The notes below the pieces were generated by a model that ran no database searches, was not told where the DNA came from, and saw only the letters and a list, made by a program, of their open reading frames with translations. Position numbers and translations under genes: made by a program. A stretch of 62,562 nt of DNA from a virus (taxonomy: Duplodnaviria > Caudoviricetes), in IMG/VR virus record IMGVR_UViG_3300032260_000001, positions 1 to 62,562 of that record; one strand, written 5' to 3'. This document shows, one piece after another, positions 3,651 through 38,478 of this stretch; within the stretch, counting starts at the first letter, position 1; each line of letters starts with the position of its first letter.

Positions 3651-3975
3651 CGTGGAGTAATTCTCCCGACGCTTTTCTAACGGTATCCCTTAACGCTTCT
3701 TCTAAGGTGAGCGTGCGGCCTCGTGAGACACGGTGGCGCTCTAACAGCTCGCCTCCAGCCCTAACAACCGACTTCATCTCAGGGTCTATCTTTGAGGTAT
3801 GCAAAACAAACCCCATACGACCAGACAAGAGAAAATTCGAGACCTGAACGATCCCGCCAACCTCATCAACGTTGATAAGCCAGAACTGAGAGACCGCAGG
3901 ATAGTGCTTGTCCAGGGTGGACATGATATTTCGGGCGAGTGTCTGACTGGCTGCTTTCACGCCACACACCCGCAA
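3643..3975 (-). CDS. Hypothetical protein upstream of portal
   Basis: ORF overlapping portal start; start codon uncertain. Confidence 0.6.
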   Translation of the reverse strand: MRVCGVKAASQTLARNIMSTLDKHYPAVSQFWLINVDEVGGIVQVSNFLLSGRMGFVLHTSKIDPEMKSVVRAGGELLERHRVSRGRTLTLEEALRDTVRKASGELLHDA

Positions 3976-4144
3976 AAAGCCCCACTAAAGTATAGCGAGG
4001 ATAGACTAGTTCGTTCCATACCGTCTCCCGACGTGAGGTAAAACTAATTAAAGTATAGTTCTTATGTACTTACATAATCAAGTAAAAATCAAGTATTAAT
4101 CAAGTGACTTCCCATTCTGTGCAAATTTTCAGCATATTCCTCTG

Positions 4145-4318
4145 CTAGATTTCACCTAGATCATCAATCAAATCAGCTATCGCTCTAAGTGCTTCCGGCG
4201 TGTATGTTCCGTCAAGAGATATGTTCCCGCTACCAAGCCCGTCGTACCAAGAGTCCATTTTTTGATTCTCGTTGTCACGAATTTGTTTCATTTTTTCTTT
4301 TGCGTCATCTTTGGTCAT
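4145..4318 (-). CDS. Small hypothetical protein (57 aa)
   Basis: MTKDDAKEKMKQ...; GGAG RBS; below ORF-track cutoff. Confidence 0.55.
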   Translation of the reverse strand: MTKDDAKEKMKQIRDNENQKMDSWYDGLGSGNISLDGTYTPEALRAIADLIDDLGEI

Positions 4319-4321
4319 TTC

Positions 4322-4579
4322 TTACTCCGTGACCTTAAGGTCCGATATTTTACTTATGCAACAGGCAGGTATATGAATAATTCCACACGCCTGAATATTA
4401 CTCTTGCTTTTTACGTCCCCCATATTTTGGGCTAGTGCTTTTACTTTTTTGCCATCATGCACAAGAAATCCAACTGAAATACATTTTATTGAGCTTTTCT
4501 TTACGTACTCGCTAAGATGCACCCAATCAGGTGTCGGCCTTGCGCTGTCAACCCATTCGATCATTACTAATTTAGCCAT
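4322..4579 (-). CDS. Hypothetical protein (IEWxDS...C.SVG.L phage family)
   Basis: ORF with AGGTG RBS in a co-oriented small-gene run. Confidence 0.65.
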   Translation of the reverse strand: MAKLVMIEWVDSARPTPDWVHLSEYVKKSSIKCISVGFLVHDGKKVKALAQNMGDVKSKSNIQACGIIHIPACCISKISDLKVTE

Positions 4580-27240: not shown

Positions 27241-28048
27241 CCCAATCTAGATCATTCGTAAAAATGAAATCTAAATCAGTTGTTAGTGCAAGATTGTCCG
27301 AAACAAGCTCTTCTTCTCTAACTCCAAAACCGTCTAGTGCAAACCACCAAAAATTAAAGAAAGAAGTATCAACCTTGAGGCTGATCGTTGCTGTGCTTTC
27401 AAATGTGACATGCCAGACATCACCGGGGATTGCCGCGATACCACCCGTTAAATTTATACGGATGAGATCAAATTCAGGAACACCGAAATCAACTACAGAT
27501 ATATTCTGCTGAAAAAAGATAGGTCCGCCGAAACCATCCCTAAACGTCACCGTGACAGGTTCTGTTGCGGTAATACTTCCTGCTTTAACAGTAAACTTTG
27601 TTACAACAAGATCGCTGCCAGCCGGGATAAGAATTTGTAGGCTTGTGCCTGAAACCTCCCCATCATCGCCTTTTACAATTGCTTGCTCAAAAACCTTGTC
27701 GGTATAGACCGGCCACGCTGGAAACTGAGTTCCGTCGTCTGTGTACTCTACGTGTGGATGGAGGGCAGTAACATTATCTTGTCTGAATGAGGTTTTTATC
27801 CAGCTTGCCGAGCTGCCTATTGATAGATCCCGGCCAATAAACAGTGTTGCGCCGGATATTTGAATATCGGTGGTATTCCAAACCCCAGCTGTTCTGAGTT
27901 GGAATTCAAACTTGGTTTGATCCAGGGTGTCGGGAAGCAGACGGAGAGATGCATCCGTATCCACATCACCCTTGAGATATAAAAACTCATCCGTGTTGCG
28001 CCGGGTAACATCAGGGCTACCCGTTGGTGTCGTGATTATTACAGACAT
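27215..28048 (-). CDS. Putative virion structural protein, first gene of the late unit
   Basis: GGAGG RBS; beta-rich. Confidence 0.65.
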   Translation of the reverse strand: MSVIITTPTGSPDVTRRNTDEFLYLKGDVDTDASLRLLPDTLDQTKFEFQLRTAGVWNTTDIQISGATLFIGRDLSIGSSASWIKTSFRQDNVTALHPHVEYTDDGTQFPAWPVYTDKVFEQAIVKGDDGEVSGTSLQILIPAGSDLVVTKFTVKAGSITATEPVTVTFRDGFGGPIFFQQNISVVDFGVPEFDLIRINLTGGIAAIPGDVWHVTFESTATISLKVDTSFFNFWWFALDGFGVREEELVSDNLALTTDLDFIFTNDLDWVVGVQDRA

Positions 28049-28186
28049 AACTCCTCCGCGAAAACATTTGCGAAGGAATTAAAGAACCCTCTTGAACCGA
28101 GGGCTAATGCGAAGGATTTGCGAAGGACAACTTGATATAAAAATAAGGCTCTAGAGCCACCAGCGCCTTCGCACGCTAGCCTCTTA

Positions 28187-28215
28187 AGTATAGCCTTATG
28201 CTATTGATATTTCTA
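28187..28215 (-). promoter_or_regulatory. Putative late promoter (PR'-like)
   Basis: TAGAAA-17-TATACT downstream of Q-like gene, followed by terminator-like hairpin at ~28080-28105. Confidence 0.5.
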
Positions 28216-28349
28216 TTAAAAAACAGTTAAAAGTCTATTTTCTTTTGCACAAAAAAACCCCTGCTGATTTCTCAACAGAGGCCGTTTATTCAAAGTTAGC
28301 TATTGCTAGTATGTAAAAATTATAGTGAAAAACCGGAACCGATTAAACG

Positions 28350-28859
28350 TTAGATTCTATTTTTCCGGTTTTTTTCCGGTTTTTTTCGGAAATATCTTCT
28401 ATCTAGCTTTTCATTAATATATAAATATATTTTCCTAACTCTTTTCTCAACTGTATCAACACTTGTGCATTCAACTTCAGCAATCTCTTTGTTTTTTAAT
28501 TCATCAATAAATTTGTATTTAGCTGTTTCCCTATGAACCTTTTCCATTCTCTTGATCAATGTATCAACATGATTCATTCTGGTATTGCTGATGTAATTTG
28601 GGATTCTAGCGCCCATACTCGGCTTTGTTGATTGCTGGCGCATTTGTCTATAATTTTTTTCATCTTTCTGCGGAATACGCTTGCGCCTCCAGCTAGGGGG
28701 CGAAGCATACTGATATTCGTAATTTTCGGGATCGAATGCAGGCGTACTTTTAGGCAACCCTAGCACTGAAAAGGACTGGCGTTTATAGGTTCCCCAAGAC
28801 TCTAGTACCGATTTTACAAATTTATGATCTTCCCGCACCACTAATACCTCTATTTTCAA
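28350..28859 (-). CDS. Late-gene regulator (antiterminator Q-like, C-terminal sigma4-like HTH)
   Basis: LESWG N-terminal motif; KEIAEVECTSVDTVEKRV HTH; position after nin region. Confidence 0.6.
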   Translation of the reverse strand: MKIEVLVVREDHKFVKSVLESWGTYKRQSFSVLGLPKSTPAFDPENYEYQYASPPSWRRKRIPQKDEKNYRQMRQQSTKPSMGARIPNYISNTRMNHVDTLIKRMEKVHRETAKYKFIDELKNKEIAEVECTSVDTVEKRVRKIYLYINEKLDRRYFRKKPEKNRKNRI

Positions 28860-28924
28860 CTATTCGGAAATTCCTAATAGTTCACTTCGTTATCCGCAAA
28901 CTAGTTATTGCTAACGTTAGGCAT

Positions 28925-29122
28925 CTAATATGGCTCCATCCCAGATTTAAAAATTCTCCATTTAACATCAGGTGTTTTTCTGGTGACATATGCGCCAGAA
29001 TCTACTAATCCACGAATCATCATGGCTCCTACAGGTTCGTAATCATCGCGGATGATTGCTGTTTCGATCCCAGTCATACCGCTATTATCAATCCTAGATT
29101 TTAATTGGTCTATTTCAGCCAT
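28925..29122 (-). CDS. Hypothetical protein in cassette-like array
   Basis: GAGG RBS. Confidence 0.6.
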   Translation of the reverse strand: MAEIDQLKSRIDNSGMTGIETAIIRDDYEPVGAMMIRGLVDSGAYVTRKTPDVKWRIFKSGMEPY

Positions 29123-29148
29123 TCTATTATCCTCGGTTATTTGTGGCG

Positions 29149-29391
29149 TTATAAGGCATACGCCTTACCTTCCTCTGTCACTTTGTAGCGATGCCAGGGA
29201 TATGGTTCATCTTTTGAAATTATAAATTTTCGTTTTTCGAGAGACTCTATAATGTCGCATAGCCATCTATTTTCGCTCATGTCCCATGTGCTAACTCTTG
29301 GGCTATCAGTCAGCACTGAAATAACATTTTTATCAGTGCGTTCTTTTTTAGGCAAATCAACAACTGCACCACTAAAGCTATCAATAAACAT
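29149..29391 (-). CDS. Hypothetical wHTH-like protein in an intact cassette
   Basis: Stop overlaps GTTA core site; YKVTEEG wing-like end. Confidence 0.6.
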   Translation of the reverse strand: MFIDSFSGAVVDLPKKERTDKNVISVLTDSPRVSTWDMSENRWLCDIIESLEKRKFIISKDEPYPWHRYKVTEEGKAYAL

Positions 29392-29417
29392 TTTTCATTT
29401 CTCCGTAGGTAAATGCC

Positions 29418-29542
29418 TTATAACAAAACAAATCAACAGGACAATGTGCCGCGTCGGTTGTTCTGTTTTTAGTTAATCCAACTATTCGGAATTTCCTAAT
29501 AGTTCCTTGTTGGCACCTTGCCTGTTATTTGTGACGTTAGCT
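29418..29542 (+). mobile_element. attC-like integron recombination site (125 bp)
   Basis: TTATAAC...AAAT(C)AACAGG / CCTGTTATTT...GTTAGCT imperfect palindrome with extrahelical base. Confidence 0.7.
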
Positions 29543-29543
29543 G

Positions 29544-29864
29544 TCAGTTCCATCCAAATTCATCTTTAGTGATAGATGAGAACGCACTATAAACAGCCTC
29601 GTTATAATCATCCCATTCTTCATCGCTACAATTTTCAGCTGGTTTGTCTGGTATGTTTCTCTCAAATATTTCAATGACAATCCGCATCACGCATTTACCG
29701 TCATTAGATTCAAGATCGCGACTTCCGCCACTATCAATATCAGAACCCCTGTAGGGCTCCATAAGCGCTCGCAGCAAAGGCAGGTCCAGCGTACCGAGGT
29801 TGTATGCCACTACTACTGTAGATTCAAATATTTTATACCCATTATTCCATCCCATAGTTTTCAC
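29544..29864 (-). CDS. Hypothetical protein in cassette-like array
   Basis: GGAG RBS. Confidence 0.6.
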   Translation of the reverse strand: MKTMGWNNGYKIFESTVVVAYNLGTLDLPLLRALMEPYRGSDIDSGGSRDLESNDGKCVMRIVIEIFERNIPDKPAENCSDEEWDDYNEAVYSAFSSITKDEFGWN

Positions 29865-29902
29865 TCCGTTTCACAGCGGCTATATGCCAGTTATTGCTAA
29901 CG

Positions 29903-30160
29903 TTAGGCCGCATTAAATGGCGTTGCTTGTTCCTTGGTTACAAGCCCAAGCAAAACTGCATTCTGTAATGCCTCTAAAAATGATTCATGGATCTCTTTAT
30001 CGTCTTTGTGATAAAAAGATACCTCACCGTTTCCAAACGGCCTCCCGTTTTTCCTCTTTGTGAAAATTTCTTTCTCTATCCCCGTTGGTTGATGAATGTA
30101 TTTCCTGTGGTAGCTACTGTCAGTTTGCATGCCGCTCTGATATTCATATTCTATTTTCAT
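29903..30160 (-). CDS. Hypothetical protein in cassette-like array
   Basis: Stop overlaps GTTAGGC. Confidence 0.6.
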   Translation of the reverse strand: MKIEYEYQSGMQTDSSYHRKYIHQPTGIEKEIFTKRKNGRPFGNGEVSFYHKDDKEIHESFLEALQNAVLLGLVTKEQATPFNAA

Positions 30161-30193
30161 CTTAGCTACTCCGTAGTTGGTTATTTGTGGTCG

Positions 30194-30403
30194 TTATGAC
30201 GCAAAGTAAGCATCAACCTTATCTCTCACTATCTCTAGCTCTCCATGTCCGTACTCTTCACACCAGTCGTCCAGTATCCTACGAGATTCGATTAACAATA
30301 ATTCCATTTTTCTAGCCTCGTCAACATGAATGCACTGGAAGTCATCGCCAGTGCCAGAAACTGCCCACATTGCTTCTTTATCTGTTTTAGGTGTAGCGGT
30401 CAT
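30194..30403 (-). CDS. Hypothetical protein in cassette-like array
   Basis: Stop overlaps GTTATGA. Confidence 0.55.
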   Translation of the reverse strand: MTATPKTDKEAMWAVSGTGDDFQCIHVDEARKMELLLIESRRILDDWCEEYGHGELEIVRDKVDAYFAS

Positions 30404-31023
30404 AACAACGTCTTCTCAATCTCATTTGCTCGCCTATTGAAGTCCTTTTTCAGATCTTTAAGATCATCAATAGTCCACTTCTGGATGAGGTGAGGTGAGT
30501 TAAGATACTCAATTATCGCCTGCCCCTCCTCCTCCCCAAATCGCACTTTTAACCCCTCTGTATATCCCCTGGTTGTCTTCGTTCCGGTAATATTTCCCGA
30601 CAACGACTCATTGCAGTATTTATTACATTGAAGATATGCATTTTTTTCATCAAACCTTAACTCAGGAAAAGCCCCTTTTGTCTTAAAGTGCCCGGCAGCA
30701 TATTGAATGCCTGGTTTCGTCGTTCCGCACGAAATACACTCCGGCAATCTCCCCTGTTTTAAATAAAACAATCTATCTCGGGCGCGAATATATCGCCTAA
30801 ACGCCACCTCTGCTTCCTTCTTGTGCGTCGAGAGTGTTTTAACACCTTCCTTAGCGTCTCTATACTCTTTCTTTTGCTTTACAACCTGTTGCTTCTGATG
30901 ACGACTCCGACCATGTTTTGCGGCACACTCTGCAGAACAAAAAAAACCCAACGGAACTTTAATACCTACTTCAACTAATTCATATTCTTTGCATTCACGA
31001 CACTTGCGCTTTTTGTTTGCCAT
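30400..31023 (-). CDS. ninG: NinG/Rap recombination endonuclease
   Basis: RKC..C, FCS.EC, YIRARD, CISCG, AGHF, LRFDE.N..LQC...CN. Confidence 0.9.
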   Translation of the reverse strand: MANKKRKCRECKEYELVEVGIKVPLGFFCSAECAAKHGRSRHQKQQVVKQKKEYRDAKEGVKTLSTHKKEAEVAFRRYIRARDRLFYLKQGRLPECISCGTTKPGIQYAAGHFKTKGAFPELRFDEKNAYLQCNKYCNESLSGNITGTKTTRGYTEGLKVRFGEEEGQAIIEYLNSPHLIQKWTIDDLKDLKKDFNRRANEIEKTLL

Positions 31024-31032
31024 GCAGCGGCA

Positions 31033-31512
31033 TCAATTCTCCTGCTTCCTATAATATTTCTCAAACTTATCCAATATTGGCAGCGGCATTCCTTCATCAA
31101 TAAAGTGGTTTTCAACGGCATTCATATACTCCGTCATCTGTTTTATTGTCGCCCATTTTAAAGAGATGCGGGCAGCGTGCGTTAAAAGCTTCTCCTGCTG
31201 CTGCGATTCCTGATAAACGTATAACAGTTCCACCCACTGTTCTTGTTCATCCCCTATGGGCTCCATGCAGTATATTCGCGCCAAAAACTCCGCTTTCAAT
31301 TTTCTGTGCCAATAATTCTCACTCCTGTGGCGCTCCGCAGACAGATATTTTATCCAACAGCCAAAGAGCCCGCCAAGCTGTGCTAGGGTCTTGCTAATTT
31401 TTGCATCTCGAATAACAACCTCAAGACTGCCATCAATCTCGCAATCTGATATAAACGCAATGCAGCCCATAAGCGCTTCATTATGCGAAAGTCTGAATGT
31501 TTTTGACTTCAT
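31033..31512 (-). CDS. ninB: NinB-like protein
   Basis: EVVIR...KTLAQ, WHRKLK, QMTEYM motifs; adjacent to ninG. Confidence 0.6.
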   Translation of the reverse strand: MKSKTFRLSHNEALMGCIAFISDCEIDGSLEVVIRDAKISKTLAQLGGLFGCWIKYLSAERHRSENYWHRKLKAEFLARIYCMEPIGDEQEQWVELLYVYQESQQQEKLLTHAARISLKWATIKQMTEYMNAVENHFIDEGMPLPILDKFEKYYRKQEN

Positions 31513-31520
31513 TAGACCTA

Positions 31521-32066
31521 TCAGCGGGTTCTTGCGCCAGCCACTGTCGCGCTGTAAGTATCCAAACCAGATCTAGTATCGGCAGAAGAATAATTTATCG
31601 CGTTCTTTCTCAGTATTCCAAAATTTTTGGCTGTGGCCCACGCGTCTTGATCGGCAGCTAGAAAGATAACGTCCCAACCGTAATTTTCTTGGTGATCCTT
31701 AATTAGAGCGGCAACAGCTTCTTGACTAAATTCACGGCTAGCGTTTTCAAATCCATCGGTTAGAACAGCCATTATTACTTTTTCTGGTTTTTCATTAGAG
31801 AAACGATGGCTAACGTGATTAAATGTTTTCCCAATCGCGTCTCTTAGTGCTGTCATTCCACCAAGAGGCCACGCATCAATTGACTTCGCTTCTGAGAGTT
31901 TCCCCTCGTATCCGATCTTGAATCCATCATCAAACCAGACGATAGTGAGATTTGCTTCGCCAATTTTTTTTTGATCCTCGATGAAAGCATTAAGCCCACC
32001 AAGTGCATCGTCTTTAACTGATTGCATTGATCCTGATTTATCCAATACACATATAATTTCTTGCAT
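31521..32066 (-). CDS. Stand-alone vWA domain protein
   Basis: VLDKSGSM MIDAS, GMTALRDAIG, LTDGFENAS; GGAG RBS before ATG at 32066. Confidence 0.85.
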   Translation of the reverse strand: MQEIICVLDKSGSMQSVKDDALGGLNAFIEDQKKIGEANLTIVWFDDGFKIGYEGKLSEAKSIDAWPLGGMTALRDAIGKTFNHVSHRFSNEKPEKVIMAVLTDGFENASREFSQEAVAALIKDHQENYGWDVIFLAADQDAWATAKNFGILRKNAINYSSADTRSGLDTYSATVAGARTR

Positions 32067-33373: not shown

Positions 33374-33801
33374 GAGGCTTTACCCTTGGCCCGCATATAT
33401 GCCTGAAGTTCTAGATCCATGTCTCGCTCTGTCAGCTTTTCACCGTTAGCACGTTTGCGATTACCCTCATCGAGGATCAATTTATCCTTTGTCCCTTGCT
33501 CCAGGGGTGGTGTAGTCTGCTTATGGTTAATCCTGCGCCTCTGTTGCTCGTAGTGGATGAGCTTGTTGTGACGTTTAACAAAATCATCTGAAAACAACGC
33601 CCCCATATCCAACTCAACCGAAGCCATTATTTCTGCCGGGGTACATCCAGCAAAGCAGTTAATCAACACATTGCCGTTATCAGCCTGCGTGACTACCATT
33701 GATGGATCTGTATCCTCATGAGCCGGGCAACATGCCATCCAGCTACCGTTACCCCTTGCCCTAACCTTGTCCAAACGTGAAAGTAATGTACTTACACTCA
33801 C
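33370..33801 (-). CDS. Primase-type Zn-finger domain protein
   Basis: CCPAHED..PS...CFAGC. Confidence 0.85.
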   Translation of the reverse strand: MSVSTLLSRLDKVRARGNGSWMACCPAHEDTDPSMVVTQADNGNVLINCFAGCTPAEIMASVELDMGALFSDDFVKRHNKLIHYEQQRRRINHKQTTPPLEQGTKDKLILDEGNRKRANGEKLTERDMDLELQAYMRAKGKAS

Positions 33802-34547
33802 ACAGCACCTACCGCATAGCTGTTCTGTTCGACGTTAGGAAGCTCATCTTTCCACCCCAAAGCCCTAATCCAGGTTGAGGGGTATGGGATGAATTGCCCA
33901 CCGTCTTTTGTCCACTCCACCGAAGTCTTGGCCTGCTGTACTGCCTTTATCATCACGTTAACCAGCTGCTCGTTCGGGTTTAGTTGTTTGAATGCCTTCT
34001 CAGCCTGCCCTTTTGATTTCTTTCTCGGGTACACGGCATAGAACTTTTCAAATAAATCATTTGCGGATGGCGTTGTTATTTTTGTAACGTCATTCCCGTG
34101 GGAGGGGATATTGTTATTATTGTTGTTATTACTATTGTTATTAGGGGTAAGCTGCTTACCCCCCTTTGTCGAACAGTTTGCCCCCCTTTGATCAACAGTT
34201 TGCCCCCCTTTGTCCAAGGTAGGTAAATTACTTACCCCCCTTAAAATGCTTTCTGGAATACCAATTTCATACTCATTTTGCAGCTGCTCCCCCCCCTTCG
34301 TCATCACAGACCTGGTATTGATTCTCTTCGTTAACCAGCCCTCGTCATGAAGGTAATTAAGCCATTTTGTGACCGTAGGTTTAGTCAGCCCCGTTTCTTT
34401 GATAATGCGAGGCACAGACGGCCACGCGACATTGTGTTCATAGTTCATAAACGTAGACAAATACAGCGCTAGATATTTTGCATTTGCAGGCAAAGAGCTT
34501 TTTTTAACTAGCTGAGCCCAATTAAAACAGGTTAAATCCATCATCAA
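33798..34547 (-). CDS. Replication initiator (lambda O-like)
   Basis: N-terminal HTH (AWPS..RIIKETGL), internal iterons, C-terminal FEKFYAVYPRK...PYPSTW domain. Confidence 0.85.
   Translation of the reverse strand: MMMDLTCFNWAQLVKKSSLPANAKYLALYLSTFMNYEHNVAWPSVPRIIKETGLTKPTVTKWLNYLHDEGWLTKRINTRSVMTKGGEQLQNEYEIGIPESILRGVSNLPTLDKGGQTVDQRGANCSTKGGKQLTPNNNSNNNNNNNIPSHGNDVTKITTPSANDLFEKFYAVYPRKKSKGQAEKAFKQLNPNEQLVNVMIKAVQQAKTSVEWTKDGGQFIPYPSTWIRALGWKDELPNVEQNSYAVGAV
34155..34242. repeat. Iterons/replication origin inside initiator gene
   Basis: CCCCCCTTTG at 34159, 34181, 34203 (22-bp period) plus a partial copy at 34235, next to an AT-rich tract. Confidence 0.8.
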
Positions 34548-38001: not shown

Positions 38002-38478
38002 ATGGCCAACGGAATCAACAAAGTCATACTGGTAGGAAATTTGGGTAAAGATCCAGAAATTCGTCACCTGCCCAGTGGTGGAGCCGTGGCTAATTTGGTG
38101 ATAGCTACATCTGAAAGTTGGAAGGATAAGCAGACAGGTGAACAAAAGGAAAAAACAGAATGGCACCGCGTAACGATGTTCAACCGCCTGGGCGAAATCG
38201 CCGAAAAGTACCTGAAAAAAGGCTCAAAAGTCTATCTAGAGGGTAAGCTGCAAACCCGCAAATATCCAGGTCCAGACGGCCTAGACCGCTATGCAACTGA
38301 AGTTATTGCTAACGAAATGCAAATGCTCGATAGTCGTGGAGGTTCCGCGCCACAACAAGCGGGCCGTCAACAGCCACAACAAAACAATGGTTATCAACAG
38401 CAACAAAAACCACAACAGCAAGCCGCACCTCCACAGAACAGTGATTTCGCCGATTTTGACGACGACGTGCCCTTCTAA
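38002..38478 (+). CDS. ssb: Single-stranded DNA-binding protein
   Basis: [28 protein letters not shown] tail. Confidence 0.96.

Follow-up and report, generated by a model that had tools for sequence, protein, structure and literature searches.

What are the short repeated junctions that separate five small genes in the early operon of a phage, and how did those genes come to lie there? The window, a stretch of 62,562 bases that is the whole of IMG/VR virus record IMGVR_UViG_3300032260_000001 (Caudoviricetes), carries the genes at 28858-30403. A reading made from the letters and open reading frames (ORFs) alone, called the sequence-only reading below, had described them as an integron-cassette-like array with genes antisense to attC, the recombination site of integron cassettes, and with no integrase. 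A cluster of attC sites lacking an integron integrase (CALIN) comprises at least two attC sites close together and no intI. Our analysis indicates, with a probability of roughly 0.75, that the region is a decayed cluster of integron gene cassettes between the NinG gene and a late-regulator gene of a lambdoid-type phage.

One complete attC-like site

Two covariance models of attC were built. Integron integrases were sought with TIGR02249 in 401 genomes of one class (the tally includes four flagged as unpublished, on which nothing else rests), and 147 of the 401 sampled genomes held one over the curated cut-off, a high share. Ten 12-kb stretches were fetched from the cassette side of ten integrases, and a rule-based scan requiring R boxes, complementarity and a single hairpin gave 18 textbook attC sites with unpaired bases in the 5' arm. 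The first model, R1, was made from these 18 chromosomal sites beside IntI genes, with pairs only in the R and L boxes. As a control it was run on the ten arrays and returned 72 matches at E<=1: 64 lay on the array-sense strand, and 46 of those were outside the training set. The second model, R2, was made from 60 sites, 47 from gammaproteobacterial chromosomes and 13 from IMG/VR, none of them from the window. In 100 unrelated loci (694 kb) it gave a single match at E<=0.01.

With filters off and both strands searched, the top R1 match in the window was 29418-29542 on the plus strand. R2 gave this site 29.1 bits, a partly circular score as set out in the Discussion, with E 5.4e-5 (both models are home-made and their E-values are rough, from a short calibration); the next match had 13.4 bits, and there was no minus-strand match. 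The 125-bp site of the sequence-only reading was thereby matched at its own coordinates and strand, and the reading passed a test on which it could have failed.

The site has the parts of an attC site in the usual order. Its 5' outer box, R'' (TTATAAC), occupies 29418-29424, and the L'' arm follows at 29428-29440, where 29428-29433 pairs with 29527-29532 and 29435-29440 with 29521-29526, leaving C29434 extrahelical. A second extrahelical base, A29441, is placed by the folds and the model, and the long centre contains a palindrome described below. L' (29521-29532) and R' (GTTAGCT, 29536-29542, core GTT at 29536) make up the right arm. The AAC and GTT triplets of the outer boxes align with invariant columns of the model; R'' departs from RYYYAAC at two positions and R' from GTTRRRY at one, and on either side the R and L boxes are separated by three unpaired nucleotides. 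One extrahelical base had been claimed: C29434 and A29441 are both unpaired on the 5' arm, at the same places as in chromosomal attC sites. As single-stranded DNA, each strand of 29413-29545 folds into a single long, imperfect hairpin, with z-scores of -3.15 and -3.47; none of 200 shuffles folded as well.

A cassette is recognised by complementarity between R'' and the R' remainder at its own start. This hallmark, too, had been claimed, and it is present: 29413-29424 is the exact reverse complement of 29148-29159 at 12 of 12 positions, and the inverted repeat extends to 21 nt at 86%. Judged by these parts, the site could still fold and be cut, with recombination of the folded bottom strand by an integron integrase.

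attC-like right arms at the gene junctions

The window has seven copies of the motif GTTATT-N5-8-GTTA where 0.65 would be expected, a number attained by none of 100 shuffles. Five copies are clustered between the small genes, all on the plus strand, at 28904, 29136, 29524, 29890 and 30180; the motif scan thus recovered every core GTT given earlier (28916, 29148, 29536, 29902 and 30193). Read on the gene strand, the motif is TAAC-N6/7-AATAAC; it coincides with or closely follows the stop codon of every small gene and precedes the ribosome-binding site that comes next. The ORFs at 30194, 29903 and 29149 end in a TAA complementary to the TTA of GTTA, as the sequence-only reading had noticed.

These junctions, numbered J1 to J5 in the direction of the genes, match the L'-spacer-R' right arm of attC, so the proposal that they are half-sites agrees with both a matrix search and an alignment, in which they resemble chromosomal right arms base for base. 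The matrix was ungapped, 22 nt long and drawn from the right arms of 47 chromosomal attC hits. Among about 125,000 positions in the window, J2, J3, J5 and J4 ranked 1, 3, 5 and 7, all on the plus strand. J2 (29887..29908) has R' GTTAGGC, its core GTT at 29902 and the best score of the window, 17.6, and supplies the stop codon of the 85-amino-acid gene. J3 is the right arm of the complete site. J5 (28901..28922; score 13.9) also has R' GTTAGGC, with core GTT at 28916, and J4 (29133..29154; score 13.6; core GTT at 29148) holds the stop of the 80-amino-acid gene. J1 (30177..30199; core GTT at 30193), the stop of the 69-amino-acid gene, was found by the motif scan and lay outside the 12 best matrix hits, because it has a 7-nt spacer and an ungapped matrix cannot take the extra base. 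The weight of this evidence lies in clustering: that four of the seven best positions should fall in one 1.3-kb stretch of one strand has, by rough estimate, a probability of the order of 1e-5 to 1e-4.

Two types of junction are present. J5 and J2 are identical at 20 of 20 positions, and J4, J3 and J1 differ little from one another over 16-19 nt. At J1, J2 and J4 the genes are 26-47 nt apart, which leaves no room for a whole hairpin site. When J2 was set beside the attC site of a related phage locus (L197, below), a possible R'' stub was seen directly abutting the right arm, as expected from loss of the hairpin core.

The motif was absent from 20-odd other gene junctions examined in the same genome, including the plus-strand early region. 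Genome-wide k-mer and relaxed motif searches gave no further convincing copies (14-nt matches at 38301 and 13302 were at chance level, E 0.5 each), and the exact junction 18-mer had 0 matches in IMG/VR. A similar sequence, TAAC-N8-AATAAC, lies exactly at the NinG stop codon in two metagenome contigs, L151 (1056-1072) and L152 (381-397), which carry the closest partial NinG relative (52% identity); the other small genes in these contigs are joined by overlapping stops and starts, without the motif.

Probable cassette genes and their relatives

The five small genes claimed to lie between the junctions are all there, as minus-strand ORFs of 65, 80, 106, 85 and 69 amino acids. Their products are not paralogs (best cross E-value 0.45). 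Tandem gene duplication was therefore rejected: the repeated junctions are not duplication leftovers, because the five proteins are unrelated. None of the five matched Pfam, PHROG or PADLOC, and the 80-, 85- and 106-amino-acid proteins had no match in cultured phages by tblastn.

The 80-amino-acid protein (29149..29391) is predicted with confidence to be a small winged-helix DNA-binding protein. It has 46 other homologs at 46-71% identity, one of them named an HxlR-family regulator, and its structure model (predicted local distance difference test, pLDDT, 88) resembles the winged helices of MarR, PadR and AspA with probability about 0.99, at E-values of 0.018 or above. Homology stops at residues 75-80 of 80; this end coincides with the cassette boundary, and we count it for the cassette reading. 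The third gene encodes 103 amino acids from the ATG at 29855 (29544..29855), or 106 from an upstream GTG. Its product has 35 other homologs at 46-76% identity with an invariant DIDSGG stretch, and is modelled as a four-helix protein (pLDDT 88.7) for which the fold search returned no match.

The 65-amino-acid protein (28925..29122) has no close relative in IMG/VR, and the 85-amino-acid protein (29903..30160) is an orphan that found only itself among 5.8 billion proteins at E<=0.001. Four partial relatives of the 69-amino-acid protein (30194..30403) are present in IMG/VR. Its gene stands at the edge of the array, where its start overlaps the NinG stop (ATGA), and it may be either the last cassette or a resident phage gene.

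From IMG/VR we took loci with genes for relatives, 13 for the 106-amino-acid protein and 11 for the 80-amino-acid protein. These 24 loci had no other gene in common with the neighbourhood in the window. In 45 phage loci R1 found 25 matches, 23 of them on the strand opposite the homolog, and seven loci (L211, L213, L210, L197, L199, L219 and L016) had matches at E<0.01; the 16 NinG-relative loci and six stand-alone-palindrome loci of that search had none. In L213 a homolog of the 80-amino-acid gene lies antisense between two attC matches, in the order seen in the window: start codon, a common stretch around the ribosome-binding site, then R''. In L197 a homolog of the 106-amino-acid gene starts next to an attC match, again antisense and laid out as in the window. 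In L246 a partial relative of the 69-amino-acid gene lies 0.4 kb from five opposite-strand attC matches, three of them at E<1e-5. Taken together, the results identify one site in the window as an attC site and four junctions as like attC right arms, and place three of the gene families in cassette contexts elsewhere.

Five such virus records were searched over their whole length. They held 11, 4, 2, 0 and 1 attC matches and no integron integrase over the cut-off; two are rated 100% complete and two have terminal repeats. The 11 matches in the record behind L211 form two clusters of opposite orientation.

The nearest relative of the phage, L016, shares a helicase-like protein (p309, 66% identity) and the sigma-like protein (49%). 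At 3949-4032 it has an attC match of 39.1 bits (R2) with perfect R boxes, and a weak second match at 4313-4364. These lie upstream of the sigma-like gene, the same place as in the window, and antisense to the genes; the surrounding genes differ.

Orientation of the genes

The claim that the genes are antisense to attC was borne out: five minus-strand genes accompany a plus-strand attC. The genes also lie on the attC bottom strand in L016, L197 and L213, and next to the gene concerned in L246, L199 and L219; this is so in every case with a certain coding strand. A longest-frame count over phage contigs gave 7 sense and 8 antisense intervals, an ambiguous result because the intervals are tiny and G+C-rich. 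In the array, as all genes are on the attC bottom strand, they are read with the early-right operon.

A replication-initiator gene lies upstream in the operon, and for a fork leaving from there, as in lambda, the attC bottom strand would be the lagging-strand template. By this analogy, the bottom-strand layout might let the strand that recombines serve as lagging-strand template when forks leave the nearby origin. Cassette arrays in phages may even form a separate class, marked by genes on the attC bottom strand.

The phage genome around the array

The record is rated 100% complete and has direct terminal repeats (127 bases by our own check). No tyrosine recombinase was found anywhere in the complete 62.5-kb record (PF00589, no match at E<=1), in agreement with the earlier statement that there is no integrase. 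The array is therefore not a complete integron, which has intI beside it. It shares with CALINs the lack of a nearby integron integrase, and with a single model hit it falls short of the two or more whole attC sites of a CALIN.

The early operon runs on the minus strand. In the order of transcription it begins with the replication initiator (33798-34547), followed by primase and helicase pieces, a VWA-like protein, NinB (31033-31512) and, on the right flank of the array, the NinG/Rap junction-specific endonuclease (30400..31023; Pfam NinG, E 7.4e-31; phrog_171, E 1.9e-47). On these assignments "phage nin region" is a fair label for the place of the array. On the left flank is the sigma-factor-like gene of a putative late regulator (28350..28859, 169 amino acids as listed), whose match to phrog_1740, RNA polymerase sigma factor, is weak (E 8.9e-4). 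The true start of this gene is probably a GTG about 20 nt inside the listed start: at 28838-28859, the GTG has GAGG before it and the listed TTG touches the palindrome.

Relatives of the locus as a whole are distant. Megablast of 28300-31100 against 50,697 phage records gave no match. NinG relatives had at most 50% identity in IMG/VR (8 loci), and in metagenome contigs (17 loci) the best long match was 52%, with 62% over one 37-residue piece. One sequencing run, possibly the source of the record, contains the sequence; it also has contigs of lower depth from a variant strain, which span the sigma-like gene (28247-28322 and 28647-28796, with 17 differences in 150 nt). In the same run, a 151-nt contig of depth 2 matches only the attC left arm (29421-29453: 33 nt, 3 differences, 1 gap) and has unrelated flanks; it may come from a further member of this attC family in the community.

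G+C content in the array is 0.40, against 0.37-0.43 in its phage neighbours and 0.55-0.7 in attC sites elsewhere. Because it resembles the neighbours and differs from the other attC sites, long residence in the phage is suggested.

Consensus scans found no enrichment of promoter-like sites (8 versus 8.3 expected) or terminator-like sites (4 versus 2.0 expected). An Rfam search of 27500-32000 at E<=10 gave five chance-level matches, all under their gathering scores, none relevant and no attC family. Resemblances to dif sites, DnaA boxes, boxA and integration host factor sites were weighed by eye only and dropped. By eye, the R'' region on the minus strand of 29413-29450 can be read as an extended -10 element that faces the 80-amino-acid gene and has a hexamer resembling a -35 box 16 nt ahead of it, and a stem with a T-rich run stands just before this putative promoter; the consensus scan listed neither.

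A palindrome shared with RhuM genes

The centre of the attC site contains a 25-nt palindrome (29480..29504, 19 nt left of the GTTATT of L'), which was said to recur at 28858. A repeat search confirmed the recurrence: the other copy lies at 28858..28882, 21 nt left of J5, and 27 nt are 96% identical between the two. The copy at 28858 is identical to a palindrome found in RhuM genes. The exact 25-mer is present in seven other IMG/VR contigs with unrelated flanks and in at least 120 genome contigs that span many phyla of bacteria and archaea. Among the 130 matches listed, 81 are in long frames with a RhuM-like motif, 37 are in short or cut frames with the motif, and 12 lie elsewhere. All three genes tested belong to Pfam Virulence_RhuM, with the palindrome at the first residues of the domain.

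An unbiased RhuM sample was then drawn, in which 52 of 201 genomes matched and 29 loci were taken, giving 30 rows. In 27 of the 30 rows the homologous 25 nt were palindromic (at least 10 of 12 pairs), with varying sequence and peptide, and in 27 of 30 this was the unique best palindrome of its gene region. Other 25-nt windows of these genes never exceeded 9 of 12 pairs (28,936 windows). The 25-nt sequence is the commonest form of a covarying palindrome inside RhuM-family (PF13310) genes of bacteria and archaea. Judging from these rows, covariation preserves the palindrome while the peptide encoded there varies. In the genomes of this sample, many ORFs of about 330 amino acids align with the RhuM profile over no more than roughly its first 70 positions, and the N-terminal part with the palindrome seems common to proteins with different C-terminal parts.

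Stand-alone palindromes were seen in this phage and in five IMG/VR contigs (L017, L019, L020, L022 and L023), with no neighbour protein common to a set that includes the window. The phage has no PF13310 match and no RhuM N-terminal domain; its copies are intergenic, with only 25-27 nt in common, and do not lie inside a RhuM gene. Nor is there a general link between palindrome and attC, since one attC match was found in 100 palindrome loci.

RhuM matches the PADLOC defence candidate PDC-S05, and Milman et al. 2023 list it as enriched beside inversion-prone restriction loci. In our literature search no paper contained these 12-mers or connected RhuM with a palindrome. The phage palindrome may be a version of an element, DNA or RNA and so far undescribed, by which RhuM-family genes of bacteria and archaea are marked. 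Stand-alone phage copies would then act as decoy, operator or antisense partner to sense or silence a host RhuM gene. If confirmed, the RhuM palindrome would represent a new kind of conserved nucleic-acid element, one that lies within a defence-island gene of wide distribution. We regard the two bold readings put forward here, phage palindromes directed at RhuM and a bottom-strand class of arrays, as unlikely.

Discussion

The most probable account of the region is that each small gene came as a cassette with its own attC site. Arrival would have been catalysed by IntI in an integron-bearing host, or would have followed from recombination with such an array. Four of the attC sites would later have lost their hairpin cores, with slippage across the palindrome as a likely cause, so that a 16-17-nt L'-spacer-R' arm is left. 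The GTTA of this arm (TAAC on the gene strand) now provides three genes with their stop codons. At present one site retains its two arms and both extrahelical bases, and its R'' is fully complementary to the start of its own cassette. Because the phage encodes no integrase and has no second whole site, the array is probably inactive for the most part, a fixed accessory gene set that includes the predicted winged-helix DNA-binding protein. It looks largely fossil, so the phage reservoir of cassettes that the sequence-only reading thought possible may not be a working one. Excision of the 388-bp circle named in that reading, by attC x attC recombination, is unlikely because only one site keeps both arms.

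Several observations weigh against a cassette origin. The chromosome-only model R1 gives 29418-29542 just 12.5 bits (E 0.67), and the higher R2 score is partly circular because the R2 training set holds the attC of the homologous L213 cassette. Only one site in the window passes a model, and the strict and loosest rule-based scans both omit it. Only four of seven R''/R' positions pair within the array (hand count), and the centre holds a side hairpin formed by the palindrome; the poor pairing would be expected if R' came from the neighbouring cassette, yet the failure still counts against the site. A single half-site score of 13.6-17.6 is within reach of shuffled windows (mean maximum 15.2, highest 20.7). 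The junction motif did not travel with the homologs in the 24 loci, where two copies were found in 182 kb against about 1.4 expected, neither adjacent to a homolog. Antisense intervals are a minority in the control chromosomal arrays, at 5 of 45. Finally, the collections hold no close relatives that could reveal insertions or deletions at G^TT, and contigs of the single run holding the sequence have no alternative joints in the array, a search that does not cover rare variants. The integron-cassette reading is partly supported: it stands as regards the attC model, the right arms, the antisense genes, the missing integrase, the complementarity of R'' with the cassette start and the relatives in attC-bounded cassettes; recombination by a host IntI and breakpoints at G^TT would be predictions of it.

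Other explanations of the same junctions were considered. The motif might serve the phage as a signal for regulation or processing between cistrons (the remnant of a terminator, for instance, or an RNase or protein-binding site), its attC likeness being convergent or accidental. A signal of this kind would suit the constant position of the motif (on the gene strand, after a stop codon and ahead of the ribosome-binding site that follows), the similar TAAC-N8-AATAAC after the NinG stop in the distant relatives L151 and L152, and half-site scores within the shuffle range; attC-like hairpins are also said to be weak terminators (Qi, Rajabal, Ghaly, Tetu and Gillings 2023, Front Microbiol, PMC9892861; Qi et al. 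below). It would leave unexplained why a whole site passes the attC model on one strand only with its extrahelical bases rightly placed, why homologous genes stand in strong attC arrays elsewhere, and why the motif is missing at 20-odd other junctions while promoter- and terminator-like sites are not enriched. We find it very unlikely.

Genes could also have flowed the other way, phage genes with their adjoining hairpins being the source of reverse-oriented cassettes and the phage a donor instead of a recipient. Bottom-strand genes in the phage loci, an orientation found in a minority of chromosomal intervals, and an array with the G+C of its phage neighbours point in this direction. Four of the five sites are truncated here and their counterparts elsewhere are whole, which points to decay once the genes had arrived; where ORFs are tiny, counting orientations in phage contigs gives an ambiguous result, and no mechanism for making attC sites is in evidence. 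Such a reverse flow is quite unlikely. The attC remnants may instead have ceased to be integron sites and become short stretches of common sequence where single genes are exchanged between related phages through homologous or illegitimate recombination. The identity among J5 and J2 and among J4, J3 and J1 is beyond the need of a loose functional consensus, the relatives of each gene are in otherwise unrelated phages, and Qi et al. raise off-target homologous or illegitimate recombination at GTTRRRY repeats. Against this, IMG/VR has no exact 18-mer match and no relative with the same junctions, and the contigs of the run show no alternative joints. As an explanation in its own right we consider it the least probable of all; it is compatible with decay of captured cassettes and does not exclude it.

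If the region is such a decayed cassette cluster, phages can hold cassettes in a form missed by standard integron finders, because these need whole attC sites, usually two. It pictures decay after capture: cores lost, the right arm reused as stop and spacer, and genes fixed in an early operon. An attC match at the same place in L016, together with strong attC arrays lacking an integrase in several complete IMG/VR phage records, points to a possible recurrent hot spot. This would be a route between integrons and phages for small accessory genes, among them perhaps anti-defence genes. Integron cassettes encoding phage defence are a topic of two 2024 preprints.

The array can be compared with three known systems. 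It resembles the sedentary chromosomal integrons of our ten control arrays in its R''-L''...L'-R' plan, its extrahelical bases in the 5' arm, its near-identical right arms and its one small gene without assigned function per cassette. It differs in that, in those arrays, the longest frame runs in the attC sense in 40 of the 45 intervals, an integrase stands beside the cassettes, and the sites are whole and rich in G+C. Phages also have boundary sequences for the exchange of modules, the "boundary sequences" of lambdoid phages and the promoter-stem-loop cassettes of T4. These, too, are short repeats bordering small accessory genes in an early region; the repeats here differ in being traceable to attC arms, with one complete attC left.

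The closest parallel is in phage CALINs. Qi et al. report integron parts in 21 phages, with 17 attC clusters lacking an integrase; IntI1 recombined five of six phage attC sites, and inverted or multiple GTTRRRY sequences at the boundaries suggested illegitimate recombination. Clusters of attC sites in phages are therefore already a known kind, and capture of cassettes by phages may exceed those 21. A word search of the main text of that article found no discussion of gene orientation relative to attC or of half-sites. Like the phage CALINs it describes, the present array has attC sites and cassettes in a phage without an integron integrase. Those CALINs have at least two predicted whole attC sites, whereas here there is one whole site with four L'-R' arms, three of which give stop codons. 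The array also lies in the nin region of a lambdoid-type phage with all genes on the attC bottom strand. Its decayed state, its place in the nin region and its consistent antisense layout set it apart from the known cases.

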